Assembly (NCBI GenBank): GCA_964016885.1
Contig: OZ024744.1
Location: forward strand, 31,062,001 to 31,126,000
Length of the DNA stretch: 64,000 nucleotides
Source: Eledone cirrhosa
Lineage: Eukaryota
Reading direction: 5' to 3'
The notes beneath the pieces are model-generated. The model was not told the origin of the DNA. It did no database searches and saw only the letters and a program-made list of their open reading frames with translations. The stretch's first letter is position 1; the number at the start of each line of letters is the position of its first letter. Of the stretch, positions 10,901 to 64,000 are shown piece after piece. Made by a program: the position numbers and the translations under genes.

Positions 10901-11223
10901 AAAAGCTCTACAGACACGGGCGCCCGGGCAGGGATCCCGCGAAAAAGATCTGTCCCAGATGCGTGCGCGACGAGGAAACCGAGGCGGTCTTTCTGTGCGT
11001 AATAGCCATGATCAAAGAGGTTGTGTGGTGGACGCGCCTGAAAGGTCTGAGGTCGGGTGACTTTCTCTCCGGCCATCACCTGGTTTACTTCTTCCGATAC
11101 CACTTCGGAAGAAGGATCAGGATGGAGAGAGAAGTGCTTGGCCCCAGACAGTTTTATGAAAGGTGGGTGAAAGAAGCGAGAATGGCCCATGTAAATGGGC
11201 CTTCTCTCTACATTGTTCTGTAG
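7922..11223 (+). pseudogene. Tx1 ORF2 of copy B (APE + RT), one frameshift
   Basis: ORFs 7931-8320 and 8212-11223 join into a protein matching ORF2 at 37817-41245. Confidence 0.9.
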
Positions 11224-11454
11224 GGGAAGAAGTGAAGAGGAAAGGGGGAGCGCCTCCTCTCTGGGCTTCCCCCGCGAAAAGAGTTGCACACTTTTCGGGG
11301 GTATGTGCAATCCCCAACACGCCCCCTCCCTTTTGAGGACTTTTTATTGTTATATTATTATTGTTATTCCTTTTTCTTTACTCGATTTATGTAAACTCCC
11401 CCACTGTGTAAATGTCCCCTTCTTTTGTGCCCTCGTGGCAAATAAATAGAAATT

Positions 11455-30656: not shown

Positions 30657-33600
30657 AACAAAAGCAAAACACCAGCTCAACCATCACAGAGTGAGATAGA
30701 GCTGGTTTTAAAAGACGTCATGAAAGACATCACCTTCATTCAGAAGGATAGACTCTACGGGAGTCTATCCATTCTCATGAAGGACAGGGACACAGCAGTG
30801 AAACTGTCCATCAAACCAATCACATCCAGCGCATACACCTTCTACCCTACGTACATGGGTAGAAGGACACAAAAAATAAAAATCCACACCATCCTGCCGA
30901 TTATGGACATATGGTGGGTTTTGACAGGTTTCCTGAACCTGGATGATGACACACTAATATCCATGGGAAAGGCATCGGGAGACGCGTTCAGTGGAACGAG
31001 CCTCGAACTTGTAGTTCAAATGAGGCCCGAAAGGATCGCCCAGATCCCTGAACGCGTCATACTGGATGATCAAACTTTTATCAACATTACCGTTGAGGGT
31101 AGGCGGCCCTCATGTTACCTCTGTGGAACCAGAGGTCACCTGAGGGCTGTCTGTCCTCAACTTAATAAGAAAACCCCAATCCTGCCTACACCACCAACAA
31201 CTGCACAACCAACACAACCACCACAACCACCACTACAAAAACAACAACCACAGCTCAAACCAAAACAAAATAACGTCCAACCCATCCACCCACTCAAAAA
31301 AAAAAACAATTTCCAAAACACCCGCATCGCAAACACCACCCGAAAATCTACCCCTCCCCTCCAACGCGGAAGATGACCCTCGTTCGTCGTCAGACGAGGA
31401 GGAGCACTTCCACACAATCAAAAGAAACAAAAGAAAACACACCTCAGACACACAAATGAAAACAACCCCTCCCCAAAACATAACACTGACACCAACACAA
31501 AAGAGCTCACAACAACAGCAAACAAAAAACACCACACAAAAACAAAAACATACATACACATACATAAACACAAGAAATGAAAAACTGTTAAACATTGTGT
31601 ACAACAACAATTTGATAAAAACACCAAGGGCCTAACTTCACCTAGGCAGTGCATTTCCCCCACCTCAAAAGGATTAAGGCCCCAGAGGACACATATAAAA
31701 CACTAAAAAAACAACTTTAAAGAGGACGTGCCCCCCCCCCCCCTGCGCCGGGCCCATTAACCGCGTCCTCCTAAAAAAACTACCCCACCCCCACCCCCTC
31801 CCCAAACACCCACACGACTCCAAACTCCCCAACCACACAACACACTGATGCCCCTACACTTCCACAAACCACCACCCCACCCAACAAACCATCCCCACTC
31901 TCATGGAAATTGTGCAGCCCGATACCCGGGACGCAGAGAGGTAAGTGCCTTTTCTCTTCACCACCAACATGGCTATGCTAAGAGTAGGCTGTTTAAATGC
32001 GCGTGGCTTGGGCTCAACTTGGAAGCAAGCAATGCTTCTAAATGACCTCAGGTCATAACGTATAGATGTGATGGTTATTTGCGAGGCCCGGATCAGCAAC
32101 GTGCGACAGCTGGCCCCCACCTTTGATGACTTTGAGATGCCCGCATCTCTCTATCAGCCCGGAGGTGGGGGTGGGGTTGTCGTTCTGCTGCAAAAACATC
32201 TGGGTCTCGCAACACAGACGGTACATTTGGACCCGGAGGGTCGACTAGTGGTTCTGGAACTTGGCAGTGGTGAAGGCGGAGCGTTTAGGTTGGTAGCCGT
32301 CTACGGCTCTTTCGGGTCAATGCAGCCGGACTTCTTCCATCGTCTGGAGACTTTTCTAGGGACGTCCCGCTCCTTGCTATTAGTGGGGGACTGGAATGGT
32401 ATCCTAGATGCACGCTGGGACTACGTAGGAGCCTGTCCCGATAGAGAGGGGTGTAATAGCCTCAGAGGGTTAATCGGTCGATTTGACCTGGCTGATATAT
32501 ATCGACTAGATTTTACGACTGCGCCAACCTGGACTTGGGCAAACCACAGCGGATCATCTAGGTCGTACCTAGATAGGTTCTTAGTTAGAAATAAGGATAA
32601 GGACTCTATAAGTTGTCCAAAAATGCGCATGGTTGGCTATTCAGACCACAAGTTAGTGACCTGCATGGTCAACCTTGACAGAACGCATAGACAGGGACCC
32701 GGTTACTGGAAGCTCAACTTGTCCTTACCGGCAAGTAAGGCTTACAGGGACCGGATTAGCACTTTAGTTAAGGAGCGGTTGACGGGCGCCATCGTCAACA
32801 GCAGGTGGTGGGGATCTCTCAAAAGAGAGATTAGAGTAGTCTCTATAGAATTTAGTAAGGAGTTAGCCTCAAATAGAAATAGGAAGGAAAGGGAGTTGGT
32901 AGATAGTGTAGAAGAGACAATTAGAAGCGGCGACATGGCCAGGGTGCTAGCGTCGAGAACGGCCCTGGGCCAGTTCTTCGACCCAGAGCACGTATTTTGC
33001 TTCGGACGATTTAGCCTTCGTGTTTCGCGTCGAAGAACTGGCCTAGGGCCGTTCTTCGACGCGAAACACGAAGGCTAAATCGTCCGAAGCAAAATATGTG
33101 CTATGGGTAACGAGGGGACCAAAGCTGTTAGCTGGGCCCGCGTGACAGAAGCCAAAAGAGGGAGTAGATCCACTATCCGGTCTTTGCGAGACCAGGATGG
33201 ACGGGTGATCCTTGAACCTAAGCAGATGTGCGAGGCTTTTCAAAAGCACTTTGCCAGATTGTTCAGAAGGGGCGGGGAGCCGGTTGGGGAAGTGGACTTC
33301 GGTCCATACCTCGACGGCCTGCCGCGTCCCTCGGACAGGGAGGCGAAGTCCTGCGAGGAGCCGATTTCAGCCGCTGAGATAGAGGAAGTGCTGAGCCAAT
33401 GCGGCAAACGCAAATCCCCGGGTCTCGATGGTCTTCCATACGAACTGTATCTAGCTATGCCGGACTTGTTCCCTGATCTCCTCGAGGCGGTCTACTGCAA
33501 CTGGCAACAGAACGGGAGAATTCCCTGTGGTGTGACCAAAGGCGTAGTCACGCTAGTGAGGAAGGACGAGAACAAGGGGGACGATATAAATAATTTCAGG

Positions 33601-35746
33601 CCCATAACTCTGCTAAATACAGAGTTACAGATTTTGGCCAAGGTGCTAGCAAAGAGGTTGGTACTTGTCGTGGGAAACCTGGTGGAAGATGCGCAGACAT
33701 GTGCTATCCAGTCCAGGTCCATCCACGACAACCTCCACCTCATGCGATACATCATAGAGAGGGTTGGGAACGAACCCGGCTTTGGTGGGGCCATGATCAA
33801 CTTGGATCAATCTAAGGCGTTCGATAGGGTCGACCATGGTTACCTGGGTGCGGTGCTAGCGGCGGCAGGCTTCGGACCCGTTTTCAGGGGCTGGATCAAT
33901 GCCATGCACAGCAGCCGAATCTGCTCTAAGGTCAAGGTGAACGGCTACCTCTCGGAGCCGTTCGAAATAGCGCGGTCCATCCAACAAGGGTGCCCTCTCT
34001 CCTCCCTTCTGTATGTAATGACTCTAGAGCCACTGCTGCGGAAGTTGGAGTTGTTGCAAGGCATCCCGTTGGAACCGGGATTGCGGAAAGCGGTGTCGGA
34101 CTACGCCTATGACGTAACAGTAATAGTGTCGACGGCATCGGAAATCGGGGCGATTGGCAACTTACTGGAGGAGTAAGAAAGGTTTACAGGTGCTAAGCTG
34201 AACCGGGACAAGTCGATCGGGCTGCAACTCGGCACGTGGAGGGGCAGATCGATGCCCTCCATTGGCGTCGTCGGGCGCTGGACGGAGGGCCCGGTGAAGT
34301 TGCTCGGGGTCTGGTTCGGACCAGACCTCCAGGTGGAGAAGAACTGGGGTGACGTAACGAACAGGGTGTTTGCACTGACCCAGCAGTGGGCCGAGTGCAA
34401 ACTGTCCCTGAAAAGTCGGGCGGAGGTGGCGAACACTTATATCGCATCCGTCATCTATTACCGCCTGACCGTTGTGCCTTGCCCAAGGGAAACGCTCGCC
34501 AAAATGGAGCGCGCACTCTTCCAATTCCTTTGGAAGAAGCGGGCTCCTATGGTGAGGAGATCCATCTGCTGTCAACACCCTTCGAAAGAAGGGCTGTGGA
34601 TGCCGTGGCTAATGATACGTAGACACGCATTATGGCTACGGCACCTCCAGGTATTCCGCACCGGTCAACCGGTGTGAGCCCCGTTTGTGAGGCGAGCCTT
34701 TCCCAGACTCGTCTCACTCATCGAGCTGCAATCCTGGGTCAAGCAAAGACCGAGAAAATTGGGCGCCTGGCACACCGAGTGTGCCCAGGCGCTCACGGCT
34801 CTTTGGCAGGCGGACCCGGCAGTCAGTGGAGAACCCACCTCGTCATTCTATAGAGGGCTGGTGGTTAGCAGGTGCAACGACGCCCTCGGAGAAGCCCTAG
34901 GCATGGAGGAAGACGAACTGGCCAACCTGTTCGGTAGGACATTCAGCCCGGGACCCATGGATAATTTTCAGAGGTCCCTGGCCTGGCAGTGCTACCGAGG
35001 GGCTCTGCCCGTTCGAGAAAGGCTCTACAGACACGGGCGCCCGGGTAGGGACCCCTTGAAAAAGATCTGTCCCAGATGCGTGTGCGACGAAGAAACCGTT
35101 GCACACGCATTGGTACACAGCTCGGGCATTGCCGATCTCTGGGGCTGTATCGAACAACTGCTGTCAAGGGTGGGACCGATCCGGTTGACCACCGAGTCTA
35201 TTGTAACGATTAACCGCCTCCCCTCTTCAAAAAGGAAGGAGAGGCGGTGTTTCTGTTCGTAATAGCCATGGCGAAAGATGTCGTATGGTGGACGCGTCTG
35301 AAAGGACTGAGGTCAGACACCTTTCTCTCTGGCAAACAAGTGGTTCGTTTCTTCCGATATCATTTCGGAAGAAGGATCAGGATGGAGAGAGAGGTGCTGC
35401 ACCCCAGCCGTTTTTATGAAAGATGGGTGAAAGTGGCGAGAATGGCCCGTGTGAATGGGCCTTCACTCTACATCAGACTATAGGTGAGGAAGATGAAAGA
35501 TCAAGGGAGCACCCCTTCTCTGTCCTCCTGGGGAGAAGGGTTACACACTTTTTTCGGGGGTGTGTGCGACCCCCTAAGGCGCCTCCTCCCTATTGACGAT
35601 TTTGTTATAAAATTTATTTTGTTATATTTTATTTTATTTTTATACTTTGTTATTGCCTCCTCCTTATTGAGGACGCCTTTTCATGTAAACTCCCCCATTG
35701 TACTTGTTCCACTTTTTGATGCACTGGTGGCAAATAAAAAAAAAAA
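30656..35746 (+). mobile_element. Tx1 copy D, truncated within ORF1, ORF2 (ATG 31969 to TAG 35483) pseudogenised
   Basis: ORF1 knuckle CYLCGTRGHLRAVC; APE/RT motifs; poly-A then (TATC)n. Confidence 0.93.
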
Positions 35747-35975: not shown

Positions 35976-37811
35976 ATGGCGGAAAAGATGGCAAACATGT
36001 CTGCCATTAGCTCTGCCACGCCCCCCAAGTCTGAAGAACAAAAAATAATTACAACAAAATTAGACATTGAAACAAACAAACAAAATGAAAAAACAAATGT
36101 TAAGGAAAATGAGCAAACAGAAAACAAACAAACAGAAAATAATACAAATAACGACAGGGCAACTTTCGCCCAGAAAACAAAGCAATCCATTACATACACA
36201 CCAATTGACCTAACTGCCGCCAGAGAAAAACTGGCCGAAGCAAAGAAACATATTGTTTTGGGGGAGAACGGAATGTTTTCCATTAACTCCCCCCCAGAAT
36301 TCAAGAAAGCCAGAGCAGAAAACACAGTTATATACAGAACTATACTAAACCAGTCAAGAAAGCCAGCACAGCCCAGCCAAATGGAAATAGAGTTAGTCCT
36401 AAAAGACTATATGAAGAATATTCTCTTCATACGAAAGGACCGACTCTATGGCAGCATTTCGGTCCTAACAAGAGACAAAGAAACGGCGGTTCAGCTTTCC
36501 CTAAGCCCACTCTCGTCGACAACATATAGCTTCTATCCCTCCTACATGGGTAGAAGAACACAGAGAGTAAAAGTAAAAACAATGCTGCCCACAATGGACT
36601 TCTGGTGGGCTATTGCTGGCTTCATTGATATGGGCGAAGACACTATGCTGTCAATGGGGAAGGCAACTGGAGATGCGTTCCTGGGAATGGGCCTCGACAT
36701 ACTAGTCCAAATGAGGCCCGAAAGAATAGCACAAATCCCGGATCGCATCTGGCTGGATGACCTTACCCCAATAGACATAATTGTAGAGGGGAGAAGACCA
36801 GCATGCTATTTATGCATGGAAAGGGGACACGTTAAGGCTAACTGCCCGAAACGTATCCCCCAAAAAGGACTATTGCCCACACCCACCACAAACAGTACAC
36901 CAGCACCACCCACCTCCAAAAATACACTAATACCACACACAGCAAACAAAATACAGACACTACCAACCACAAACACAACACAAACATCACCACCACCAGC
37001 ACCAAACACAAGCACGACACAAAAATCACCACCACCAACCACAACACAAACATCACCACCACCATTACCAACCACAAGCACGACACAAACATTACCACCA
37101 CCACCACCACAAAACCCATTCCAAACAAATAATAAAAAAAACAGTAACAAATCTACCCCTCCCGCAAAAAAAAAACAACCACACAACACGTCCCTCCCAC
37201 CTAGCGCTGAAGAGTTTCCCCCAACTTCTGAAGAAGAAGGAGGAGAAGCCTTCAGACAAGTTAAAAGAAAAAAAAGAAAACACACACCCAGCACACCACA
37301 AATAACCCACACACAAACACCAACTCCAATCAAAAACACCCCACCCTCAACAAACAAAAATAAATCTGCGCCTCCCCTCTCCGAAACATTGACAGCATCA
37401 CAAAAAGAGACGTTGCAATACACATATATAAATAAAGAAAACAAAAAACTGGTTAAATTAATAAACAATAACCCTATGGTGCAGACCGAAGGGCCAAACT
37501 TTATCTCAACAGAGAACTTCACCCATTTAAAAATGATAAAGGTCCCTCTGGACCTTTATCGTTCCTTAAAAGAACAATTTAGACGGGACGTGAGCCCCCC
37601 CTGTTTAAAACCGTTGAATCGCGTCCTCTTGAAAGATTTCCCCATAACCGCCCCTCTCCCTGACACAACTCCAAATACCCCAACCCCACCACACACGTGT
37701 ACCCCCACACCACCACAAAACATCCCTCCACCCAACACACCTGATGCCATGGAAATTACGCAACCCGGAGAGGTAAGTGCTTTTCTTTCTTCACTTTCAA
37801 CACCAAAATAG
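35976..37811 (+). CDS. Tx1 ORF1 nucleic-acid-binding protein (611 aa, CCHC zinc knuckle, Pro/Thr-rich linker)
   Basis: Open frame from gcagcATGg; CYLCMERGHVKANC. Confidence 0.9.
   Translation: MAEKMANMSAISSATPPKSEEQKIITTKLDIETNKQNEKTNVKENEQTENKQTENNTNNDRATFAQKTKQSITYTPIDLTAAREKLAEAKKHIVLGENGMFSINSPPEFKKARAENTVIYRTILNQSRKPAQPSQMEIELVLKDYMKNILFIRKDRLYGSISVLTRDKETAVQLSLSPLSSTTYSFYPSYMGRRTQRVKVKTMLPTMDFWWAIAGFIDMGEDTMLSMGKATGDAFLGMGLDILVQMRPERIAQIPDRIWLDDLTPIDIIVEGRRPACYLCMERGHVKANCPKRIPQKGLLPTPTTNSTPAPPTSKNTLIPHTANKIQTLPTTNTTQTSPPPAPNTSTTQKSPPPTTTQTSPPPLPTTSTTQTLPPPPPQNPFQTNNKKNSNKSTPPAKKKQPHNTSLPPSAEEFPPTSEEEGGEAFRQVKRKKRKHTPSTPQITHTQTPTPIKNTPPSTNKNKSAPPLSETLTASQKETLQYTYINKENKKLVKLINNNPMVQTEGPNFISTENFTHLKMIKVPLDLYRSLKEQFRRDVSPPCLKPLNRVLLKDFPITAPLPDTTPNTPTPPHTCTPTPPQNIPPPNTPDAMEITQPGEVSAFLSSLSTPK
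37770..37778 (+). promoter_or_regulatory. Putative 5' splice donor GAG|GTAAGT at the end of ORF1
   Basis: Consensus donor, conserved at the equivalent position in copies B (7887, GTAGGT), D (31941), H (55334 minus) and I (63091 minus). Confidence 0.7.
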
Positions 37812-40800
37812 ATCAATTGAGAGTTGGCTGTTTGAACGCGCGTGGCCTGAGCTCAGCTTGGAAGCAAGCAAAGCTTCTAAGTGACCTCAGGTCACAAAGT
37901 ATAGATGTGATGGTTGTTTGCGAGAGTCGGATCAGCAGCGTGAGACAGCTGGCGCCCGCCTTCGATGACTTTGAGATGCACGCATCTCTCTGTCAACCCG
38001 GAGGCGGGGGGGGAGTTGCCGTACTGCTGGATAAACGTCTGACTCTCGACGTACAGATTGTTCACTCGGACCCGGGGGGTCGATTACTGGTGCTGGACGT
38101 CGGAGGTGGTGAAGGCGGGGCTTTCAGACTGGTCGGTCTTTATGCTCCCTTCGGGGCGGAGAGAGCCGACTTCTTCCAACGTCTGGAGACTTTTCTAGGA
38201 ACGTCGCGTTCCCTGCTTTTAGTGGGGGACTGGAATGGAATCCTAGATGCGCGTTGGGACTATGCAGGGGCATGTCCCGATAGAGGGGGGTGTAGCAGCC
38301 TCAAGGGGTTACTCGATCGATTCGACCTGGTCGATAGATTTCGACTAGATTGTCCAACTGCGCCAACCTGGACCTGGGCAAACCGCAGTGGACAATCTAG
38401 ATCGTACCTAGATAGGTTTTTGGTTAGGAGTAAGGATAGGGACGTATTTAGTTGTCCAGAACTGATCATGGTTGGCTATTCAGATCACAAATTAGTGACC
38501 TGCGTGGTCAACCTTGATAGAACGCATAGACAGGGTCCCGGTTACTGGAAGATGAACTTGTCCTTACCGACAAAGAAAGATTACAGAAACCGGATTAGTA
38601 GCTTAGTTAAGATGCGGTTGACGGGAGCGATCGTCAACAGTAGGTGGTGGATATCTCTAAAGAGAGAGATTAGAGTAAGTTCGATAGGTTACAGTAAGGA
38701 ACTAGCGGCGAATAGAAATAGGAGGGAAAGGGAGTTAACAGATAAACTAGAAGAGGCGATTAGGAGCGGAGACGTAGCCAGAGTGTTAGCGACGAGAACG
38801 GCATTGAGCCAGTTCTTTGACGCGAAGCACGAAGGCTGCGTTGTCCGAAGTAAAATACGTGCTTTAGGAAACGAGGGGACCAAAGCTGTTAGCTGGGCCC
38901 GCGTGACAGAAGCCAAGAGTGGGATTAAATCCACCATTCGGTCTTTGCGAGACCAGGATGGACGGGTGATCCTTGAACCTGAGCGAATGTGCGAGACCTT
39001 TCAAAGGCACTTTGCTCGACTGTTCGGAGGGGGCGGGGGGCCGGACGGGGATGTGGACTTCGGTCCATACCTCGACGGTCTACCGCGTCTTTCGAGCGGC
39101 GAAGCGGAGTGCTGCGAAGGGCCAATCACAGCCACTGAAATCGGGGAAGCGCTCAGCCAATGCAGCAGACGCAAATCCCCGGGTCTCGATGGTCTACCAT
39201 ACGAACTTTATTTAGCTATGCCGGTCTTGTTCTCCGAACTCCTCGAGGCTGTCTATTGCAACTGGCAACAGAACGGGAGAATTCCCTGTTCTGTGACCAA
39301 GGGCGTGGTCACGCTAGTGAGGAAGGACGAGAGCAAGGGGGACGACTTAAGTAACTTTAGGCCCATAACTCTGCTGAATGCAGAGTTACAGATTTTGGCC
39401 AAGGTGTTGGCGAAGAGGTTGGCGCTTGTGGTGGGTGGTTTGGTGGGAGACGCGCAGACATGCGCTATCCCGTCCAGGTCCATTCACGACAACCTCCACC
39501 TCATGCGATACATCATAGAGAGGGTTGGCTACGAACCCGGCTTTGGTGGGGCCCTGATCAACTTGGATCAATCTAAGGCGTTCGATAGGGTCGACCATGG
39601 TTACCTGGATGCGGTGCTAGCGGCGGCGGGCTTCGGACCCGTTTTCAGGGGCTGGATTTCTGCCATGCACAGTGGCAACATCTACTCTAGGATTAAAGTA
39701 AACGGCTACCTCTCGGAGCCGTTTCAAATCACCCGATCCATCAGACAGGGGTGCCCCCTCTCCTCCCTTCTGTACGTATTGACTCTCGAGCCACTGCTGC
39801 GGAAGTTGGAGTTGCTGCGGGGCATACCCCTGGAACCGGGATTGCACAAAGCGGTCTCGGCCTATGCCGACGACGTAACAGTAATGGTGGCGGACGCCTC
39901 GGAAATCGGGGCGATCGCCACCCTACTGGAGGAATACGAAAGGCTGACGGGGGCTAAGCTGAACCAGGACAAGTCAGTCGGTTTGCAACTCGGAACGTGG
40001 AGGGGCAAACCGATGCCGTTAGACGGTGTCGTCGGGCGGTGGACGGAGGGCCCGGTGAAGCTGCTCGGGGTCTGGTTCGGACCGGACCTCCAGGTGGAGA
40101 AGAATTGGGGCGAGGTGACGAGCAGGGTGTTTGCGCTGACCCAGAAGTGGGCCAAGTGCAAACTATCACTGAAAGGTCGGGCGGAGGTGACGAACGCTTA
40201 CATAGCGTCCGTCATCTACTACCGCCTGACCGTCGTGCCTTGCCCCAAGGAAAAGCTCACCATCATGGAACGCATGCTCTTCCAGTTCCTCTGGAAGAAG
40301 CGGCCTCCCATGGTGAGGAGATCCATCTGCTGCCAGCACCCTTCGAAAGGAGGGCTGGGTATGCCGTGGCTGTTGATGCGTAGGCACGCATTGAGGCTAC
40401 GGCATCTACAGGTATTCCTCAACGGTCAGCCGGTGTGGGCCCCGTTTGTGAGGCGAGCCTTCCCACAGCTCGTCTCGCTCACCGAACTGCAATCCTGGGT
40501 GAAGCAAAGACCGAGAAAACTGGGCAACTGGCACACTGAGTGTGCCCAGGCGCTCACGGCTATCTGGCAAGCGGACCCGACTGTCAGTGGAGAATCCACC
40601 TCGACATTCTATAGAGGGTTGGTGGCTAGCAGGGGCGACGACACCCTTGGAGAGTCGCTAGGCATGGAGGAGGACGAACTGGCCAGCCTGTTCGGTAGAA
40701 CTTTCGGCCCGGGACCCATGGACAACTTCCAGAGGTCCCTAGCCTGGCAGTGTTACCGGGGGGCTCTGCCCGTTCGAGAAAAGCTCTACAGACACGGGCG

Positions 40801-41245
40801 CCCGGGCAGGGATCCCGCGAAAAAGATCTGTCCGAGATGCGTGCGCGACGAGGAAACCGTTGCGCATGCACTGGTACACTGCCCGGGCGTTGCCGATCTG
40901 TGGGGCTACGTCGAACGACTGCTGTCGCGTGTGGCGCCGATTCGATTAACCGCCGAGTCTGTGGTGAACATCAAGCCGCCTCCTCCCTTCAGAAATGAAG
41001 CAGAGGCGGTCTTTCTGTGCGTAATAGCCATGATGAAAGAGGTTGTGTGGTGGACGCGCCTGAAAGGTCTGAGATCGGGTGACTTTCTCTCCGGCCATCA
41101 CCTGGTTTACTTCTTCCGATACCACTTCGGAAGAAGAATCAGGATGGAGAGAGAAGTGCTTGGTCCCAGACAGTTTTATGAAAGGTGGGTGAAAGAAGCG
41201 AGAATGGCCCGTGTGAATGGGCCTTCTCTCTACATTGTTCTGTAG
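37808..41245 (+). CDS. Tx1 ORF2: AP endonuclease, reverse transcriptase and C-terminal zinc finger; non-AUG start
   Basis: LNARGL, VCES, GDWN, SYLDR, SDH; PGLDGL, FRPITLLN, DQSKAFDRV, QGCPLS, YADD, LLGV; CPRC..H...HC. ATA at 37808 aligns with the ATG of sister subfamilies. Confidence 0.93.
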   Translation: MDQLRVGCLNARGLSSAWKQAKLLSDLRSQSIDVMVVCESRISSVRQLAPAFDDFEMHASLCQPGGGGGVAVLLDKRLTLDVQIVHSDPGGRLLVLDVGGGEGGAFRLVGLYAPFGAERADFFQRLETFLGTSRSLLLVGDWNGILDARWDYAGACPDRGGCSSLKGLLDRFDLVDRFRLDCPTAPTWTWANRSGQSRSYLDRFLVRSKDRDVFSCPELIMVGYSDHKLVTCVVNLDRTHRQGPGYWKMNLSLPTKKDYRNRISSLVKMRLTGAIVNSRWWISLKREIRVSSIGYSKELAANRNRRERELTDKLEEAIRSGDVARVLATRTALSQFFDAKHEGCVVRSKIRALGNEGTKAVSWARVTEAKSGIKSTIRSLRDQDGRVILEPERMCETFQRHFARLFGGGGGPDGDVDFGPYLDGLPRLSSGEAECCEGPITATEIGEALSQCSRRKSPGLDGLPYELYLAMPVLFSELLEAVYCNWQQNGRIPCSVTKGVVTLVRKDESKGDDLSNFRPITLLNAELQILAKVLAKRLALVVGGLVGDAQTCAIPSRSIHDNLHLMRYIIERVGYEPGFGGALINLDQSKAFDRVDHGYLDAVLAAAGFGPVFRGWISAMHSGNIYSRIKVNGYLSEPFQITRSIRQGCPLSSLLYVLTLEPLLRKLELLRGIPLEPGLHKAVSAYADDVTVMVADASEIGAIATLLEEYERLTGAKLNQDKSVGLQLGTWRGKPMPLDGVVGRWTEGPVKLLGVWFGPDLQVEKNWGEVTSRVFALTQKWAKCKLSLKGRAEVTNAYIASVIYYRLTVVPCPKEKLTIMERMLFQFLWKKRPPMVRRSICCQHPSKGGLGMPWLLMRRHALRLRHLQVFLNGQPVWAPFVRRAFPQLVSLTELQSWVKQRPRKLGNWHTECAQALTAIWQADPTVSGESTSTFYRGLVASRGDDTLGESLGMEEDELASLFGRTFGPGPMDNFQRSLAWQCYRGALPVREKLYRHGRPGRDPAKKICPRCVRDEETVAHALVHCPGVADLWGYVERLLSRVAPIRLTAESVVNIKPPPPFRNEAEAVFLCVIAMMKEVVWWTRLKGLRSGDFLSGHHLVYFFRYHFGRRIRMEREVLGPRQFYERWVKEARMARVNGPSLYIVL

Positions 41246-41246
41246 G
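41222..41246 (+). promoter_or_regulatory. Putative 3' splice acceptor coinciding with the ORF2 stop codon
   Basis: ccttctctctacattgttctgTAG|G; all nine copies end ORF2 with TAG, and eight are followed by G. Confidence 0.65.
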
Positions 41247-41476
41247 TGAAGAAGTGAAGAGGAAAGGGGGAGCGCCTCCTCTCTGGGCTTCCCCCGCGAA
41301 AAGAGTTGCACACTTTTCGGGGGTATGTGCAATCCCCAACACGCCCCCTCCCTTTTGAGGACTTTTTATTGTTATATTATTATTGTTATTCCTTTTTTCT
41401 TTACTCGATTTATGTAAACTCCCCCACTGTGTAAATGTCCCCTTCTTTTGTGCCCTCGTGGCAAATAAATAGAAAT

Positions 41477-41540
<64 letters not shown>

Positions 41541-41560
41541 ATATCTATCTATCTATCTAT

Positions 41561-50082: not shown

Positions 50083-50125
50083 GTCACTGAAGAGGTCACA
50101 GAATGTGTGACGAAAGAACTTTGAC
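50083..50125 (+). ncRNA. Minimal hammerhead, inverted pLTR copy
   Basis: Identical motif on the plus strand. Confidence 0.75.
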
Positions 50126-51766: not shown

Positions 51767-54700
51767 GATTTCTTTATTGGCCACAAGGGCTAACATGAAG
51801 AAAAACATTAGAGACGGCACAGAACGGTACAGGACGATACAAAGTGGGTTTTGGCCGTGTAAAAAAGGTTATAACAAGATAGATGTCTCAAAAATTTCAA
51901 ACAACAAAAATTCCCCTATAGGGGGGAAACTTCCGAGGGTCACTCGTGGCGAAAACCACACAAAAGACCACGGCCACCCTGACCACCAGGGCAAGCACCC
52001 TCTCTCAGTTTTCCACTCTTCAGTCTACAGGCTCATACTCAGAACAGGCCCGTTCACTCGGACCAGACTCGCCACTTTCACCCACCTTTCAACAAACTTA
52101 CTAGAAGACAGCACTTGCCTCTCCACCCTGATTTTTCTCTTCAAGTGAAACTTAATCAGGGATTCACCGAAGAGGAAAGTGTCCGTATTCAATCCTTTCA
52201 ACCTTGTCCACCAGACAATCACTTTCGCTATGGAAACCAGGCAGTTGAAAACTGCCTGCCATTTCGCCTCCTTAAAGGAGGATGGCGCGGCTATCTGCAC
52301 AATGGACTCAGTCGATAACTGGATCCGTCCACAAGTCAGCAATGCTCAGTCATTGAACTGGTGCGTGAACAACGGTTTCGTCGCTCTGTGTGCATCTCGG
52401 ACATGTCCGGCTGACGGTACTTCCGTGCCTGTACAGCTTATCTCGAACCGGCAACGCTCCCCGGTAGCACTGCCAGGCCATGGATTTCTGGAAGTTGTTC
52501 ATAGGCCCCGGGCTGAAATTTCTCTTGAAGAAAGCGAACAGCTGATCGTCATCGACACCCAGGTTCTCTCCGAGAACGTCGTCACTCTTCCATAGAACGC
52601 CGAGGTGGATGTTCCACCGATACTAGTGCCCAGCTGGTAGAAGGCTGTGAGCGCTTGGAGATATTCCAGCTTCCAAACGCTATCCCTCGGTCATTTCCTG
52701 ATCCAGGACTGCAGCTCCGTTAATGAGACGAGCTGGGGAAAAACAGGTCTGGCAAACGGTGACCACGCCTGTTCACCGTCGAGATGTCGCAGCCTCAGCG
52801 CATCTTTGCGCATCATCAGCCACGGTATGCCTAGCCCTCCACGCAACGGGTATTGACAGCAGATGGATGGTCCGACCATGGGAGCACGTACTTCCATAAA
52901 AAGCGGAAGAGGAGGCGCTCCATTTTTATCAGAGTTGGGCCGGGGCAAGGCACAACGGTTAGGCGGTAGCAGATGACGGATGCCATGAACGCATTCGCCA
53001 CCTCTGCCCGACCTTTCAGGGAAAGCTTCCTCACGGCCCATTGCTGGGTGAGAGAGGCCACCCTGTTCGTCACCTCGCTCCAGGCTTTCTCCATCTGGAG
53101 GTCCGGACCGTACCAGACCCCGAGCAATTTAACCGGTTCTTCCGTCCAGCACCCTACGACGCTGTCAGACGGAATCAACTTGCTTTTCCAGGTGCCGAGC
53201 TGCAAGCCCACCGACTTTTCCTGGTTTAACTTTGCTCGTTACTGCTTCATATTCCTTGAGAGCGGTGCCGAGCATCTGGACATGTACGGCGCTTGACACC
53301 ACCACGTTCGCGTGGGACGTCTCCCATCGCCTCCAATTTGTGCAGTAACGGTTCTAGGGCCAATACGTACAGGAGTGACGAGAGCGGACAACCCTGATGG
53401 ACCGAGCACATGATGCTGAACGGATGTGACAGATGACAGTTCACCTTCAGAATTGAACAGAAGTCGCTGTGCATCGCAGCGATCCAACCCCTGAAAATGG
53501 GCTTAAAACCAGCCGCGTCGAGGACCGCTGCCAGGTATCGATGGTCGACCCTATCAAATGCCTTAGATTGATCTAAGTTGATCAGGGCCAAACCCGTGCC
53601 AGGTTCCTTAACCACCCACTCTATGATGTATCGCATGAGGTGGAGGTTGTCATGGATGGATCTGCCCGGAATGCCGCATGTCTGCGCCTCTCCTACCAGA
53701 TTACCGACAAGTGCCAATCTCGTTGCTAACACCTTGGCGGTCAAAATCTTGAAATCTGTGTTTAACAGAGTTATGGGCCTGAAGCTGTCTATAACGTCCC
53801 CCTTGTTCGGGTCTTTTCTCAAACGTCCATCGCTTCCCGGCTCACAAAACTGGGAATGCTCCCGTTCTGCTACCAGTTGCAGTAGACGTCTGCAAAGAGG
53901 TCGCCGAACAATCTGGCATGTACGCATAAAGCTCGTAGGGCAGACCATCCAAAACTGGCAATTTACCCCTCGGACAGTCAGACATCACTTCCAGTATTTC
54001 ACCTGCTGTTATCGGCTTTTCGCAATAATGCACTGTATTCGTCGAGGGCTGCGGCAGTCCCTCGAGATATGCACTGAAGTTCATACTCTGATTCAGCACG
54101 CTGCCGCTCCCAAAGAGTTGAGTAAAGTGCTGTTGAAAAGCCGCACACATCTGCTCGGGTTCGAGTAACATGCGCCTGTTTTGATCAGACAAAGACCGAA
54201 TTGTGTACTTGTTGCCACATCGCGCCTCCACCACCCGGGCCCATTGAACCGCTTTCGTTCCCTCGTGTGTTAGAGCACGCGCTCTAGCTCTGACAACATA
54301 GCCTTCATGCTTTGCGTTGAAGAATTGGTCGAGTGCCAATCTTGCCGCAAGCACGTCGGTTGCGATGCCTGTCCTAAACGCCTCTTCTTGCTTTCTAACT
54401 ACTCTCCCTCTACTCTATTTTCCTCTATCACTACTCCTTTGCTAAATCTTATCGGTTCTACTCTAATAGCCATTTTCAGGGTAAACCACCACCTGTTTTT
54501 GACGATCGCACCCGTCAGAGCACGCTTAACTAATTGGCTAATCTGGTCTCTGTAAGCTTTGTGCGGCGCCGGGAACGACGCGTTCAGCTTTCAGTAGCCG
54601 GGCCCTTGCCTATGGAGTGTATCTAAGTCAACTTGACAGATCACAAATTTGTGGTCCGTGTAGTCGACTACTTTAAATTGTGGACAACTTACACTAGCCT

Positions 54701-57390
54701 TATCTGTTTCCCTACAGAATACCCTATCTAAATACGATCTGGATGACCCGATGCGGTTTGCACATGTCCAGTCTATACCTGTCAGACAGTTCAAAACGTC
54801 TGAGCAGGTTGATGAGGCTTTTACATCCTCCTGCCCTGTCTACTAGGCCCACATTATCCCAGCGTGCATCTAAGATACCGTTCCAGTCGCCCACTAACAC
54901 TAAAGAGCGGGACGTTCCAAGAAAAGTCTCTAGACGTCTGAAGAAATCTGGCCGTCCTGCCCCTGTTGGGGCGTAGACGGCTACTAGCCTGAAAGCATTG
55001 CCTTCGCTGCCGGTCACGTCCAGCAACACCGACTTACCTTCTGGGTCCAGGAAGATGGCCCGTATGGCGAGATCCAAGACACGGCAACCCCTCTCCCGAT
55101 CCTGGACAGCTGGGAGATGCGTATACATCGTAGCCGCCGAAGATCGCTGCGAAGTCTCGTACTTCGGAGATTCTGGTCTAACTAATGCCCACCACATCTA
55201 TGTTTAGTGATCTGAGGTCTTTGAGCAGGTGACTGTGCTTCCAAGATGACTCCAGGCCACGTACATTTATACTGCCTATTCTAAGTACGGCCATGTTGGA
55301 TGAGAAACGGGGTAAGTGAGAAAGGATCACTTACCTTGATCGTGTGGTGAAGGGACAGTAGAACCGTCCATTTGGCTGGTCATGGGTGTTTCCAAGAGGA
55401 TGTCGGTGTATATCCTTTTGGTAACCGACCCTCTGTAGTCTCCAACTGCGTTGGGGAATTTTTGTTTTAAATGTTTGTAATGTTCTATTGAGATTTCAAT
55501 GTTTATGTCTTTCGGGAGAGTTCTTGGTGTTGGTGGGGTGTAGTAGTTTTTTTCTGTGATGTCTGTGTGCTGCTTTATATGTTGTAAGAGTTCTTTATTT
55601 GCCATGTTTATGGCTGTGTACTTTTTTTTGGGGGGGGGGGGGGGGGGCATTTTGTTGCTGTTTTTATGTTGTTGCTGTTGGGTGTGTGTTTTGTTGTGTT
55701 TGCGTTGTTGGTGATTTTAGTGATGCTGGTGGTGATGTGGTTGTTGTTGGTGGTGATGCTTATGGTGATGATCGAGATGGTGGTGGTGTTGCTGCAAGGC
55801 TCCTTGCATCTTTTACCCCTCTTTGTCTGCCTTCGCTTTTGAAGGGTGAAGCTAAGTGGTTTTTCCTTTTTTGCTTTTTGTGGCAGACCGTTTGCCACTT
55901 CCCTCCCTCCTCACACTCCATGTCGGACCCCGCGACGTCCGGGAGGGGCATGAGCTCCACTGATGTTGGTGGTGGTAGTGGAGCCCGCTCCGGCGATTTT
56001 ACCGCCGGCGTAGCTACAGCGTCAGTTGGTGTTGCCGCCACTGCTGCCGCTGCTTTAGTTGTCCGTGGCCTTGGTATGGGTGCCACGGACGTTGCCTTCC
56101 TACTCACCATGAAAGGGTCTTCTGCCTCTGTTGCTTGCCTTGCTCTTGGTAGCAGCGGATCAGGCCTCGGAAGGAGGGAGACCCTCTTCTTGGCTGTCTT
56201 CTGCGATGCACTCCTGGTCAGTCTGTATTAGCATTCGCATGCTTATCCCTGACCAGTTCACTCTTCCCATTCTCTGTATTTGCAGTATGGTGGTCTTCTC
56301 CTCGATTCCAGCCAGTACAGACGCGGCCAACCAAGGTATGGGAACGTCGGCCGGGACCTGAGTCACTTTGACCCTCACAATTTTCTGCCCGCAGTAGGAG
56401 AGCACCAAGACTATCTCCTCACTCTTTAGGGTTTCCAAAGAGTGAGACTTCGCCTCTTGGGGGGTGGCGAAAAGTACGTCTACTTTGGCGTACTTTTTGC
56501 CTCGGGTGATGTGGGTTTTGCGCGCCCTGGCGCGCCCCAAGGCCTTTTGGATTTGAGACTCCGTGGCTCTCTCCACCCGATGAGATATTTTGCTTACGGT
56601 GCGGTATGTCACCGTGCGCAGCTGTGGTCTTTGAAGAAATCGGGTGGAGGTTTCAGGGAACCTCTATTGTCGTTTCTCGACACCATGGCCCATGCCACTG
56701 CCATCTCCTCCTCCGTGACTAGCACTGTCTCTATATTTTGGGCCACACCTGCGAAAGAAGTGGCCCCTGTTTTCAGCGGTACCATTATTGCTGCTGTTAC
56801 TGGTCTTGTTGTTGGTGCTGTTACAAACGGTGTTGTTGGTGTTGTTGTTGTTATCACTGTTGCAGTTGGTTGTGTTTTTGGTGCCACCGTTGTTGTTGTT
56901 TTCGGTGCAATTTGTATTGTTGCTGTTGGTGTTGTTGTTGTTTATTTATTGTTAGTGGTGTTAATATCGTTGTTGCATTTGTTGTCATTTTTTTCTGTTG
57001 TCTGTATTTTGGTTGTCGCTGTTATTGTTGTAGATGGTGTCGTAATTTTTTCAAAATTACTGTTCTCAGTGTTGTCTTTGTTCACGTTGTTTGTGGTGGT
57101 GTTTGTAACCCTCCTCTCAACGTTTACACCGTTGTCAGACGACAGCAGACATATTGATGGGGGGGGGGGGGGGATCAGCCATGTTTTTTTTTTTAAAAAC
57201 AAATTTTTTTAAAAAGTAAAATGTTCAGATATTTGGGCCAAAAGGCCCAAATATTATACTTTCCCCTTCACAGGGCAAAGTCTAAGGGCTTATATCCCTT
57301 ACACAACAAGAAATATTTAACAACAAATAATTATAACAGGCAAATAAAGCGACTTACTGGGAGCGAGCAAAAAGCGTCCGAACAGACCGA
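51767..57390 (-). mobile_element. Tx1 copy H, full-length decayed, distinct subfamily, in (ATT)n
   Basis: ORF1 remnants at about 57180-55327; ORF2 from ATG 55294 to TAG 52025 with many lesions; (TAA)n at 51757-51766 and 57391-57406. Confidence 0.88.
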
Positions 57391-59456: not shown

Positions 59457-62400
59457 GATTTCATTTATTAGCCACAAGGGCCGACATGTAGGGGACAATA
59501 CAAAGACAGAGACAGTGGGGGTTTACAATAAGGTCGAGTAAAAGTGCACAATGGCAAGACTAATTTAACAATGAAGATATAAAAATATAAAATAAACTAT
59601 GCATACATATAATAAAATAAATTCCCCGATAGGGGGTGGACGACCCTGGGCTGACTCGGGTACCCCACCAATCATGACCCACCCTGCCATTCTAGGGCAC
59701 CCAGGAAGAGCACCCCTCTCCTCAAGTTAGCTAGCCTATGGGCGCATTGTCAGAGTAGGACCATTTACACGAGCCATTCACCCACCTTTTAGCAAATGTA
59801 CTGGGGGGTAACACTTCTCGCTCCACCCTTACCTTCCTTTCCAAGTGAAACTTGAAGAAGTTGATGAGGGATTGGCCGAAGAGAAAAGTGTCTGTCTTCA
59901 GTCCTTTTAACCTGGTCCACCATATAACCTCTTTCGCAACTGCCACCAGACAGAGGAAAATTTTCTGCTCTTCCTCACCTAAGGAAGGCAGTGGGTCGAT
60001 CTTCACTATGGACTTGGCCGATAGCCGGATTCGTTCCACACGCGACAGTAGCTGTTCGACATAACTCCACAAGTCAGTAATGCACGGACATTGGACAAGT
60101 GCGTGCAGAACGGTTTCGTCGTTCTGTGCGCATCTTGGGCAGGTCCGTCTGACAGCACTTCCGTGCCTGTAGAGTTTATCCCGAACCGGCAGTGCCCCTC
60201 GGTAGCACTGCCAAGCGAGGGATTTCTGGAAATTGTCCATCGTCCCCGGCTCAAAAGTCCTCCGGTACAGACTGGTCAGTTCGACTAATCCTCTATAGAA
60301 CTCGAGAGTCGAAGTTCCACTGATCGCATTGCCAGCTTTGTTGCCTGGCAACATTCCAGGTGCCAGTCACCCAGTCTCGGTCTCTTCTTGACCCAGGACT
60401 GCAGCTCAGTCAAAGAAATGAGCTGCGGAAAGGCCCGTCTGATAAACGGCGATCACACCTGTTCACCGTTGAGGCAGAATATCTGGAGATGTCGCAGCCT
60501 CAACGCATGTCTGCGCATCATTAGCCACGGCATGCCCAGCCCTCCGCGTAGAGGGTGCTGGCAGCAGATGGACCGCCTCACCAACGGAACTTGTCCCCTC
60601 CACAAGAATTTGAAGAGGAGCCGTTCTAACTTGACGAGGCGCGGACGGGGGCGAGGCACGACGGTTAGGCGGTAGTAGATGACGGACGCGCGACCTTTCA
60701 GTGATAGCTTCCTCCCAGCCCATTTTTGGGTGAGACTAGCTACTCTGCTCGTTACCTCGTCCCAATTCTTTTTCACCTGGAGGTCTGGTCCGAACCAAAC
60801 CCCGAGCAGCTTTACCGGTCCGTCCGTCCAGCGCCCCACGACGCTGTTGGACAGCGTGGGCTTGCCTCTCCAGCTACAAGCCCACCGACTTTTCCGGGTT
60901 AAGTTTGGCTCCTGTCAACCTTTCATATTCCTCCAATAAGGTGCTGACCACCTCGATTTCTGAGGTGTTTGACACCATCATGGTGATGTCGTCTGCATAA
61001 GCCGATACTGCTTTTCACGTCCCGGTTCGAGCGGGATGCCCTGCAACAGCTCCAACTTCCGCAGTAAAGGCTCGAGAGTCAATACGTACAGAAGGGAAGA
61101 GAGAGGGCACCCTTGACAGACCGATCGGGAGAGCCGAAATGGTTCCGAAAGGTGGCCATTAACCTTGACCACCGAGCGTGTGCCGCTATGCATTGCAGCG
61201 ATCCAGCTTCTGAAGACAGGGCCGAAGCCAGCTGCTTTGAGGACAAATTCCAGATACCGATAGTCGACTCTATCGAATGCTTTCGATTGATCTAAATTGA
61301 TCAGAGCCCCACCGAAGCCAGGTTTACACTTACCCTCTCTATGATGTATCGCATGAGGTGGAGTTTGTCGTGTATGGACCTGGCTGGGATTGCGCAAGTT
61401 TGCGCCTCCCCAACCAAATCCTCGACGACAAGCGCCAATCTCTTTGCTAAAACCTTGGCCAAAATCTTAAACTCTGTGTTGAGCAGAGTTATGGGCCTGA
61501 AGTTCTCTAATGTATCCCTTTTGTTCTCGTCTTTCCTCATCAGCGTCACCACTCTCCTGCTCACAGACCTGGGAATACTCCCATTCTGCTGCCAGTTGCA
61601 GTAGAGTGATTCGAGGAGATCGGAGAACAAGTCTGGCATATTTACGTAAAGCTCGTAGGACAGGCCATCCAAACCGGGTGACTTGTGCATCATGCAGCCG
61701 AAAAGGGCGTCCTGAATTTCGGCTGAACTAATCGGCCTTTCGCAGCGCTCAGCGTCGACCGTCGAGATCCGCAGCAAGCCGTCAAGGTAGGGACTGAAAT
61801 CCGCTACTCTGACTCGCCAATCTCCCTGAACAACCGAGCAAAGTGCTGGCGAAAGGCCTCACACATCCGCCTGGAATCGCTTATCTCATGTCCGTCTCGG
61901 TTCGCCAAAGACCGAATTGTGGTTTTATTACCACGCTGCGCCTCCTCCACGCGGGCCCATCGAACAGCTTTGGTTCCCTCGTTTCTCCACGCACGCGCCT
62001 TAGCTTTGACAATGCAACCTTCGTGTTTCGCATTGAAGAAATGGTCTAATGCCATTCTCGCCGCTAGCACGTCAGTTGTAACGCCACTACAAATAGCCTC
62101 GTCTAACTTATCTACCAGCTCCCCCTCCTTTCTATTTTTCTCTAACGCTAGTTCTTTGCTGAACTCTATCGAAGTTACTCTAATCTCTCTTTTGAGAGCC
62201 CCCACCATCTGTTGTTGATGATCCCCCCTGTCAACTTTTGCTTAACTAAATTGTTGACTCCGTCCCTGTATCCTTACGTGCCGGAAATGACATGTTCAGC
62301 TTCCAGTAACCCGGTCCTAACCTACGCGTTTTATCTAGGTCGGCCGTACAGATCACACATTTGTGATCTGAATAGGCGAACGTTTTAAAAAGTGGGCAGC

Positions 62401-64000
62401 CCACACTATTTCTATCTATTTTCCTAATAAAGATCCTGTCTATATACGATCTAGATGGCCCCATTCGGTTGGTCCATGTCCATACTAGCACATTGGGGAA
62501 ATCTAGTCGATACCTGTCAGACAGTTGGAACTGGCTGAGGAGGTGCTTGAGGCTTTTGCACCCCCCCCCCCCCCCGCTCCTATCGGCTACTCCCACACAA
62601 TCCCAGCGTGCGTCTAAAATGCCATTCCAGTCCCCCGCTAACAGTAAAGGGCGAGACGTACCCAGAAAGGTCTCCAGGCGCCTAAAGAAGTCCGGTCGCC
62701 CGGACCCTGTAGGGACGTTGACGGCCAGCAGTCTAAAGGCACAACCTTCGCTACTGCTCACATCCAAGACCACCAACTTACCGTCCGAGTCCCGGAAGAT
62801 GGACCTTACCTCGAGATCCAGTCCTTTCCTAAACAGCTCTGCCACCCCACCTCCCATTCTCTGCCTGCTAACAGATGCGAAGATCTGATAATCGACGAAA
62901 ATGGGGGCTAGTGCGCGCGTGTCGGAAATTCTGGTCTCGCTGACGGCAATCACATCCATTTCCAGCGACTTGAGGTCGTTGAGCAGGCGACCCTGCTTCC
63001 AGGGTGACTCCAGGCCGCGAACATTTAAACTTCCTACTCCTAATATGGCCATGTTGGTAAGCTAAGAGAGAGAGAGGGAAGGTTTACTTACCTCCCGGGG
63101 TCTTGTGAATGTCGGGTGGTTCGACCTCCATGTTTGGTGGGGTTTCTTTTAGGAACCCCTTTAAAAATCTCGATGTGGGTTTCACATTCGGGGTTCCCAC
63201 GTCTTGAGGAAAGCTCTCTTGAATTTCTTTGAAGGAATTGAGTGACATTCGGACCAGAAGCAAATCTTCTGGCACGCAAAATGTGCTCATTTCAAAAATC
63301 TCCCCTTCTGTTTGAATGTCCTCGCTTCGTGCTAAGAGGGCCATCAGTTTATCGTTGGCCCTTCTGACAAGCACGAAGTTTTTAACATTTTGTTGGTGTG
63401 GTTTTATTTGTTTTCGTTTTGGTGACTGGGGTGGTGATGGGTTTGGTGGTGTTGTTTCTGGTATGTCTGTGTTTGTTGTAGGTGTGGTGTCTGCAATTTC
63501 AGGTATTTGTGTTTGTTTAGGTTGTTGCGTTTCGGGGATTGGGGGGTGGGTCGACGTTGCTGTTGGTGCTGATGTTATTGGGGAAGTGTTTGCGTTAGTG
63601 GTGTCTGTATTTTTTGTTGTGTATGTTTTTGTGTTTTATTGGGTTTTTTTGTTGAGTTTTCTCTGTTATTTTTTTGCATTTTTTGGTTTTCCTTCATCTT
63701 CGCTGCTGGAAGACAAAGGGTCTGAGTCTGTGAGTATCTCTGTGTCTGTGTGTGCGTTTATTGTTTTGTCTATGTGTATAATTGGGAGGGTAAGAAAAGT
63801 GGGAGAGCTTTCCTCGTTTTCCCCTTGGATTGGTTTTGGTGATCGTGGTGATCCGGCTGTTTTTGATGTTGGTGCCCGTGTCTTTGTTGGTGTTGTTTTT
63901 GGTGGTGGTGGTGGTGGTGCAGCTTTCCGTGCTGACACTGGCGTTGGCAACAAAGTAGATTTGCGACCCCCTGCATTTTTGTGCAAATGAAATTTGAAAA
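59457..64000 (-). mobile_element. Tx1 copy I, distinct subfamily, runs off the right edge; 3' end in (ATT)n
   Basis: ORF2 from ATG 63052 (MAILGVGSLNVRGL) to TAG 59736, frameshifted; ORF1 C-terminus at 63084-64000; (TAA)n at 59444-59456. Confidence 0.9.

Follow-up and report, generated by a model that had tools for sequence, protein, structure and literature searches.

How do bicistronic long interspersed nuclear elements (LINEs) keep ORF1 protein plentiful and ORF2 protein scarce, and by what means does the ORF2 protein select its own RNA? These long-standing questions, for which termination-reinitiation and cis preference are the partial answers so far, are raised by a 64,000-nucleotide stretch of the Eledone cirrhosa genome (GenBank assembly GCA_964016885.1, contig OZ024744.1, positions 31,062,001 to 31,126,000 of the forward strand; hereafter the window), which holds nine copies (A to I) of one LINE family, several of them head to tail within each other's (TATC)n tails. 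A preliminary description of the window had proposed that the entire second open reading frame (ORF2) of these elements is a spliceosomal intron, running from a 5' splice-site-like sequence (the donor) just upstream of ORF2 to the ORF2 stop codon. That description overlooked what appears to be the strongest feature of the elements: a pyrimidine tract that follows the donor and the purine-rich beginning of the 3' untranslated region (UTR) look like opposite strands of one stem, co-evolving and with ORF2 enclosed between them. This stem, which is new here and better supported than splicing, is very likely a selected RNA structure and is our firmest result. To the reading that it acts as a long-range switch gating the splicing of ORF2 we assign a probability of roughly 0.5.

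Copy E is a complete element, and its features lie as follows; all folding in this work is computational prediction.

35976..37811, + strand: ORF1, 611 amino acids from the first ATG, with a CCHC knuckle and a Pro/Thr-rich C-terminal half
37720..37804, + strand: 5' arm of the predicted stem, comprising the ORF1 end, the donor and the inter-ORF spacer; well-supported core 37764-37804
37770..37778, + strand: donor-like site GAG/GTAAGT, the element's best match to U1
37808..41245, + strand: ORF2, 1145 codons with an ATA, not an ATG, start; apurinic endonuclease (APE), reverse transcriptase and zinc-binding domain; loop of the predicted stem, proposed intron 37773-41245
41223..41246, + strand: pyrimidine tract and TAG/G, the ORF2 stop codon doubling as candidate splice acceptor
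41245..41328, + strand: 3' arm of the predicted stem, the purine-rich 3' UTR start; core 41245-41287
41267..41295, + strand: local 3' UTR hairpin 1, exclusive with the long-range stem
41303..41335, + strand: local 3' UTR hairpin 2, incompatible with the outer portion of the stem
41464..41560, + strand: AATAAA signal and (TATC)n tail/target

A predicted stem with ORF2 as its loop

We compared 19 subfamily representatives, hand-picked, one copy each and some of them old and mutated, which fall into clade 1 (M, N, D, O, P, P2, Q, E, A1-A3 and G) and clade 2 (I, I2, H, H2, J, K and K2); because the representatives are related, counts over them are not independent events. Sixty elements covering distinct start sequences were drawn from the first 100 listed ORF2 starts, and 8 G-like, 16 E/B and 20 M copies were examined further.

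An inverted K copy brought to light that ORF1 ends resemble the 3' UTR in reverse complement. On the upstream side the predicted duplex takes in the final ~50-170 nt of ORF1, the donor and the spacer as far as the ORF2 start; these are complementary, in antiparallel orientation, to the ORF2 stop codon together with ~90-130 nt at the beginning of the 3' UTR. In all, 49-79 pairs are predicted. No internal window is as good a partner of the 5' arm as the UTR start in 19/19 representatives (z -2.6 to -8.4), and the same is true of the window copies B (-66 kcal/mol, ahead of 16/16 internal windows), D (-73, 17/17), H (-66, 16/16) and I (-84, 16/16). The same best-partner test was passed by one of 25 outgroup LINE loci, these being the loci among 80 that had a long ORF and both flanks. 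The locus that passed, a metagenome LINE (L167, 2030-2125 with 5855-5980; z -4.8), pairs loosely through AT-rich sequence and has no donor.

The part of the stem formed by ORF1 shows signs of having changed on both sides in step. When the 60 nt that end ORF1 are paired with the 120 nt that open the UTR, z lies below -2.5 under both shuffles in 11/19 representatives, and a 180 by 140 nt ORF1-UTR match reaches p<=0.025 in 13/19. Ten clade-1 representatives were compared at 26 anchored pairs, E, Q and clade 2 having been set aside on account of indels; of the 260 cells 88% are paired, as compared with 42-52% in slid registers, and 8 of the 26 pairs carry two-sided changes. Cognate arms beat non-cognate arms (p 0.006-0.007), and the three five-lineage tests rank the cognate arrangement at 1, 23 and 2 of 120. 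Copy E has lost ~17 nt of the ORF1 arm; the 9-bp helix that remains carries a matching change.

The spacer is non-coding. Together with the donor it pairs with the stop codon and the purine-rich UTR start at -17.7 to -44.7 kcal/mol; 15/19 representatives have no better partner window in ORF2, and the pairing reaches p<=0.05 in 13/19 against a shuffle that preserves purines and pyrimidines. Spacers prefer their own UTR over those of others (clade 1, 0/50,000 permutations; clade 2, p 0.0004), and exact tests over eight lineages place this cognate advantage at 2, 1 and 14 of 40,320. Spacer length also correlates with the UTR position that faces the donor (rho 0.63, n 19). The flanks of the donor, which had been called unalignable between subfamilies, are in fact alignable within a clade and constrained by the RNA pairing.

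These data bear on the idea that the complementarity is a neutral relic: an inverted duplication of ancient date would have persisted passively, through constraints on protein and hairpins, and the splice-like motifs would have arisen by chance. Such a relic would fit the observations that non-cognate arms within a clade pair well (22.4 vs 23.0 of 26) and that one of the five-lineage tests is not significant (23/120). The two-sided changes, the matched indel lengths and the cognate advantage in the non-coding spacer argue the other way; we give this explanation next to no credence and consider it already largely refuted.

The arms might instead be selected for reverse transcription, with RNA or cDNA end pairing that would favour full copying of ORF2 or strand transfer. 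Both arms do appear to be selected, and the 3' UTR, where priming starts, is involved. Breakpoints may also cluster at the stem: an inversion in one K copy (L254, 1460-1700) breaks at the donor, and two copies (L070, L153) are 5'-truncated within ~35 nt of it. The cyclization elements CYC5/CYC3 of the LTR (long terminal repeat) element Ty1 offer an analogy. The 5' arm, however, lies in the middle of the element and not at its 5' end, and the sense duplex is stabler than the antisense in 16/19 representatives, with G.U making up 167 of 1262 pairs, which argues against a hairpin in cDNA. We consider a role in reverse transcription highly improbable.

Rfam returned no match above gathering score over 7.5 kb around copy E. 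An adenosine-to-inosine footprint in the arms was found neither in M (1/1199 vs 35/20,139) nor in E (3/1446 vs 22/18,793) and was marginal in K (6/473 vs 39/7460, p 0.049 uncorrected).

The 3' arm also has the potential to fold on itself. The local UTR hairpins are conserved, with 23 pairs, 4 of them showing two-sided changes, over 6 copies. When the ORF1 end and the UTR are folded joined together, ORF1 pairing displaces most of the local pairs in M, O, H, H2, J and K, but not in A1-A3. Minimum-energy folds of 3.9 kb form the stem in M and K, and in these models the stem and hairpin folds are close in energy.

Splice-like sites at both ends of ORF2

The donor stands within the 5' arm. The preliminary description had located it in five window copies, and its positions, its codon phases and its spacing from the ORF2 start (35 nt in E) were borne out.

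7827..11333, + strand: copy B, E lineage; GTAGGT donor at 7887, phase 0, 35 nt before ORF2; stop 11221; internal deletion
31881..35593, + strand: copy D; donor 31941, phase 2, 28 nt before ORF2; stop 35481
37773, + strand: donor of copy E, phase 0
51915..55394, - strand: copy H; donor 55334, phase 1, 40 nt before ORF2; stop 52027
59626..63151, - strand: copy I; donor 63091, phase 1, 39 nt before ORF2; stop 59738

The statement that every copy retaining the ORF junction has a donor was right for these five and fails for copy A (2150-2310), where the ORF2 start is kept and the end of ORF1 has been lost with the donor by internal deletion.

Across the family a donor lies 25-52 nt upstream of the ORF2 start in 19/19 representatives, and in 18 of them it is the best or tied-best match to U1 among the 181-331 GT sites of the element, as judged by an ad hoc score built on the donor consensus. 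A 5' splice site complementary to U1, as expected of a U2-type intron, is thus found. The donor was present at 29/30 unselected ORF2-start loci and in 55/60 fetched elements, the misses being point changes or deletions. With the same score, a donor of equal quality turns up in only 21 of the 2071 30-nt intervals of ORF2, donor-grade context surrounds only 26 of 3066 stop-like triplets, and no such donor precedes ORF2 at any of 10 outgroup L1/Tx1-like loci where the ORF2 start was located. Conservation is 0.84-1.0 at donor positions -2 to +6 and mostly 0.4-0.7 on either side, a contrast that is partly due to the construction of the motif search.

Constraint on the ORF1 protein had been excluded as the cause of this conservation, on the ground that the motif lies in three codon phases. 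This is half right. Phase 2 is found in 12 representatives, phase 1 in 5 and phase 0 in 2, and GTAAGT, GTGAGT and GTAGGT contain the three stop codons, so that in phase 2 the TAA, TGA or TAG of the donor is the ORF1 stop codon. The motif is nevertheless kept in phases 0 and 1; the fixed variants GTAAGT, GTAGGT, GTGAGT and GTAATT are all usable donors in these phases too, and in B GTAGGT is fixed in phase 0 without any stop constraint. Nor does pairing account for everything: the motif is retained where +2 to +4 are unpaired (D, O, P, P2, I2 and E), and the UTR sequence opposite the donor varies by family (ACCTAC in M, ACTCAC in A2, ACTTGC in K). A second donor-grade site, in the endonuclease region of ORF2 (window 55037, minus strand), is kept in part of clade 2, namely H, H2, K and K2, where it lies at +295 to +317 relative to the donor.

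At the other end of ORF2, all nine window copies stop with TAG and eight with TAG/G, as had been reported. Of ~260 AG sites, that of the stop is among the three best in 9/12 clade-1 representatives; in E it is the very best, and none of 49 internal TAGs scores as high as the stop TAG. The 19-mer that precedes the stop is in the top 0.4-0.8% of ORF2 for pyrimidines in E, P, M and A1. This tract sits in the loop of the stem, and co-evolution with the UTR was not detected for it. In the alignment no clear branch-point consensus, expected 18-40 nt before the AG, was seen by eye; no scored search was made. The chance of splice-grade sites at both ends of ORF2 is roughly 1% times 2%, a post hoc figure that refers to one ancestral event.

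Two other signals may be mentioned. The pyrimidine tract of the spacer was rejected as an acceptor for an ORF2-only mRNA, there being no AG before the start in most families. A depletion of AG in the distal UTR (14 observed vs 36 expected, GA 22; 13/19 representatives scored) was not separable from composition.

Splicing of ORF2 and other roles for the stem

We propose that ORF2 is an optional intron of 3.4-3.5 kb. With the stem formed, the donor, the AG/G and the purine-rich start of the second exon would be covered and the intron retained, and the retaining RNA would serve as ORF2 mRNA and as template. Where the local hairpins win, U1 would bind the donor and ORF2 would be spliced out to leave an ORF1-only mRNA, which in phase-2 families with a G-TGA exon start would give the same ORF1 protein. 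In the spliced RNA the end of ORF1 would pair locally with the UTR hairpins and hide them from the reverse transcriptase, which would explain why no spliced copy integrates. Because the spacer would be part of the intron, the stem can matter only in unspliced RNA. For the E clade an intron is, from the arrangement of the sites, the single most likely reading. The complete two-state switch, in which the stem masks the splice sites, its release lets ORF2 be spliced and the ORF1-only mRNA folds its UTR into a form invisible to the reverse transcriptase, we advance more tentatively, at somewhat less than even odds.

Several observations weigh against splicing. Genome pattern searches, exact and gapped, found 0 spliced junctions vs 584 unspliced for E/B and 0 vs 313 for M, the unspliced patterns being the positive controls, and in D and K they found none either. 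With the sequence downstream of the donor left free to differ, the patterns returned 0, 1 and 5 matches, and these 6 proved to be local indels, an inversion or unrelated. The check for ORF2-less retrocopies that the preliminary description had put forward thus came out negative among hundreds of full junctions. The lack of such copies speaks against the intron but is weak evidence, because in L1 cis preference makes ORF2-less retrocopies rare (accessible part of PMC5860796). ORF1 protein tails, used as a proxy for splicing, were uninformative: a 90% database held no near homolog, and of 115 remote ORF1 homologs the 10 read were 22-36% identical over the domain with the C-terminus unaligned.

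The donor itself is open to the objection that its +2 to +4 are the ORF1 stop codon in the 12/19 phase-2 representatives, that +5 and +6 pair with the UTR in most families, and that the sole change at +5, in J, falls where that position is unpaired; stop codon and stem pairing therefore explain much of its conservation. In E the remaining ORF1 helix is not significant alone, nor is the 180 by 140 nt match, and the 3.9 kb minimum-energy folds of E and A1 lack the stem.

In clade 2 the stop AG ranks 4, 9, 12, 17 and 40. Outside the window the rule that ORF2 ends in TAG breaks down in K and K2, where TAA is found in 11/11 copies with a located end (13 fetched), and K, the commonest subfamily (31 of the first 100 listed ORF2 starts), keeps donor and stem all the same. 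Of the two losses that had been named as telling against the intron in related families, K thus shows the use of another stop and not the lack of a donor. Conservation of TAG was rejected as evidence for an acceptor: its retention in 15/17 is equalled at 33 of 64 two-fold synonymous G sites. The join, which had been said to close ORF1 at once in each subfamily, does so within 4 codons in 10 of 17 TAG representatives (8/34 in the other frames; the representatives are related) and in the other 7 (O, P, A2, A3, G, J and Q) adds tails of 27-101 amino acids. Clade 2 may have lost or moved its acceptor. In J, K and K2 (L104, L102, L092) a strong T-tract followed by CAG stands ~160 nt past the ORF2 stop in the distal UTR, ranking 2-3 in J and K. 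This CAG could replace the acceptor lost at the K stop, and no retrocopy with the K junction was found in the genome pattern search. It and an AG 7 nt upstream of the stop could rescue some of the mismatched families; we do not count them as support because they add free choices. Taken as a whole, the proposal that ORF2 is an intron keeps two ends that are splice-like beyond chance and has against it the missing ORF2-less copies, the K stop without AG and the 7/17 representatives in which no early stop follows the join.

The two codons that bound ORF2, its start and its stop, mark the inner end of the stem, and the donor stands in the middle of an arm; this geometry suits translation at least as well as splicing; a stem enclosing ORF2 could equally serve translational control. 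In this, the main alternative, the stem would be a switch for translation and the ribonucleoprotein that acts without splicing: it would bring the stop of ORF2 next to its start and keep the spacer hidden, ribosomes ending ORF1 would melt it and so reinitiate to a limited extent on ORF2, and the 3' UTR would then refold into its local hairpins, bound in cis by the new ORF2 protein, the donor-like look being a by-product of stop codon and stem. In most families the pairing does reach the bases just before the ORF2 AUG and span the stop; the stem is kept in K, without an AG at the stop; and spliced retrocopies are missing. SART1 and L1 use structure-dependent termination-reinitiation (PMC5972666, accessible part). 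What such a switch leaves unexplained is why the best U1 match of the element should stand here, given that 26/3066 stop-like triplets have that context, and why the stop TAG should follow one of the most pyrimidine-rich 19-mers of ORF2. We judge the translational switch possible but rather unlikely as the sole explanation, and it and the splicing switch are not mutually exclusive.

The ORF2 start of the E/B lineage is as coupled reinitiation would predict, with no ATG at the homologous position (window 37802-37811; B, 7916-7925) in 16/16 copies read. An ATA there overlaps the ORF1 stop TAG after a run of A, and the lineage nonetheless has 584 copies; in copy E the ORF2 frame is open back to 37745. 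Either reinitiation at AUA, where the stop overlaps, or slippage by -1 at a 'shifty stop' would fit the arrangement; for the latter potato virus M provides a precedent. Long-range pairing with the 3' UTR also controls recoding in plant RNA viruses. A readthrough or frameshift across the spacer shared by the whole family was rejected, as the frame relation of ORF1 to ORF2 takes all three values.

The donor might, finally, be a real U1 site that is used without splicing, for protection against premature polyadenylation in the A-rich ORF1 or for nuclear handling, the stem tuning or removing the site and the acceptor being incidental. The donor is universal and the acceptor is not, AATAAA or ATTAAA lies upstream of the donor in 16/19 representatives within the sequence examined, and U1 has the same role in Evade (PMC5580714). 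ORF2, which lies downstream, has few polyadenylation signals, however (none in 12/19), and such a role has no need of the acceptor-like stop of clade 1. We think it improbable.

Whichever mechanism operates, the co-evolving stem enclosing ORF2 is a concrete target for mutations that disrupt and restore it. Should it gate splicing, LINEs would have come to the solution of copia on their own, with a structural switch in addition, and a non-LTR element would possess a conserved, structure-regulated device for the ORF1/ORF2 ratio and for template choice. A family with >10,000 ORF2-start copies and a strong donor could also affect host splicing.

The family and the known systems it resembles

The element has the marks of an active L1-group, Tx1-like LINE family of an octopod genome. 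ORF2 matches the Pfam families Exo_endo_phos, RVT_1 and zf-RVT, its closest PDB structure is human L1 ORF2p (E 2e-49), and APE, reverse transcriptase and C-terminal zinc-binding domain are accompanied by an upstream ORF1, a 3' poly(A) signal or repeat tail and 5'-truncated copies, as in the L1 group. The fit to Tx1 rests on targets and architecture. Copies terminate in (TATC)n in clade 1 or (ATT)n in clade 2, and the Tx1 clade has target preferences, often for microsatellites (PMC4494074, accessible part). Tx1 ORF1 proteins are of the RRM/zf-CCHC type (PMC5203782, accessible part); ORF1 of copy E has a single zf-CCHC match under cut-off (E 0.019) and no RRM match. The nearest named protein, from Argonauta hians (61% over the C-terminal third), nests within the family tree, and a reverse transcriptase tree places it in an octopod clade (support 100/99). 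Across the 3.0-Gb genome a degenerate ORF2-start pattern matches 10,089 copies, to which the E/B lineage adds 584, and E is young, 40/40 scored matches being identical across 301 nt. L1-Tx1 families have been recently active in Octopus vulgaris, and splicing is not mentioned in the accessible part of that report (PMC13282606).

Further observations concern the ends and neighbours of the copies. All 3' ends carry a conserved GCCC-N-GTGG-C-(A/T)-AATAAA (window 41445-41469 in E), and the distal UTR has a conserved TTTAC(A/T)CG motif. M copies (L081, L133-L135) share a non-microsatellite sequence after the tail or poly(A) signal and form head-to-tail arrays near contig ends, which suggests another target (a satellite or another repeat). 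Copy D looks mosaic, or internally duplicated over short lengths, at 33024-35500, with extra pieces near 32990-33080 and 35214-35260. The window also contains two broken Penelope-like elements, one (14986-17216, + strand) by resemblance only and the other (48491-50083, - strand) with reverse transcriptase and GIY-YIG matches, and a broken LINE (22310-25963, + strand) with a reverse transcriptase and a C-terminal restriction-like endonuclease motif, presumably of Dong/R4 type.

Pairing over kilobases is known to couple polymerase expression or priming to the 3' end in tombusvirus readthrough, in barley yellow dwarf virus frameshifting and in Ty1 through CYC5/CYC3. These are viruses or LTR elements, and no splice sites are involved.

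For the published comparisons that follow, the sources are quoted from their accessible parts, to which statements of absence are confined. Tx1 LINEs such as Kibi and Koshi likewise have two ORFs, an APE-reverse transcriptase protein and microsatellite insertion; the Eledone LINE targets (TATC)n and (ATT)n, and for Kibi and Koshi neither splice sites nor a stem is reported (PMC4494074). SART1 and L1 share with it a bicistronic RNA in which structure near the ORF junction governs ORF2, but that structure is local to the junction, and pairing with a 3' UTR 3.4 kb away is not mentioned (PMC5972666). Human L1, also of the L1 group, has functional internal splice sites and cis preference, but its spliced forms, SpORF2 and the SpIREs, remove the 5' UTR or parts of ORF1, leaving ORF2-only or 5'-deleted RNAs that are termed dead ends and show no conserved ORF1-only design (PMC2896524, PMC5860796). 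We found no report of ORF2-removing splicing or ORF2-enclosing pairing in non-LTR elements in the literature covered, which takes in few subscription journals and not Repbase Reports; PMC5537684 contained nothing pertinent.

The closest parallels come from LTR elements. Drosophila copia splices out all of pol (PMC5580714), and its gag RNA (Yoshioka et al., 1990, via PMC5580714) arises, as we propose here, by removal of a ~3 kb intron containing the enzyme region to leave a structural-protein-only mRNA. Copia differs in having a single ORF and in that its splicing is demonstrated, whereas in the Eledone LINE splicing is predicted; an enclosing co-evolving stem is not mentioned for it (PMC5580714). 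In Evade and other plant Ty1/copia elements the balance between structural and catalytic protein is set, through the shGAG RNA, by a conserved U1 site that follows the structural gene, and U1 also blocks early polyadenylation; there the intron is short, surrounds the protease and is combined with premature termination, so that the 3' end of the element is not used (PMC5580714). By analogy, the Eledone LINE would work like copia and partly like Evade while being a member of neither.

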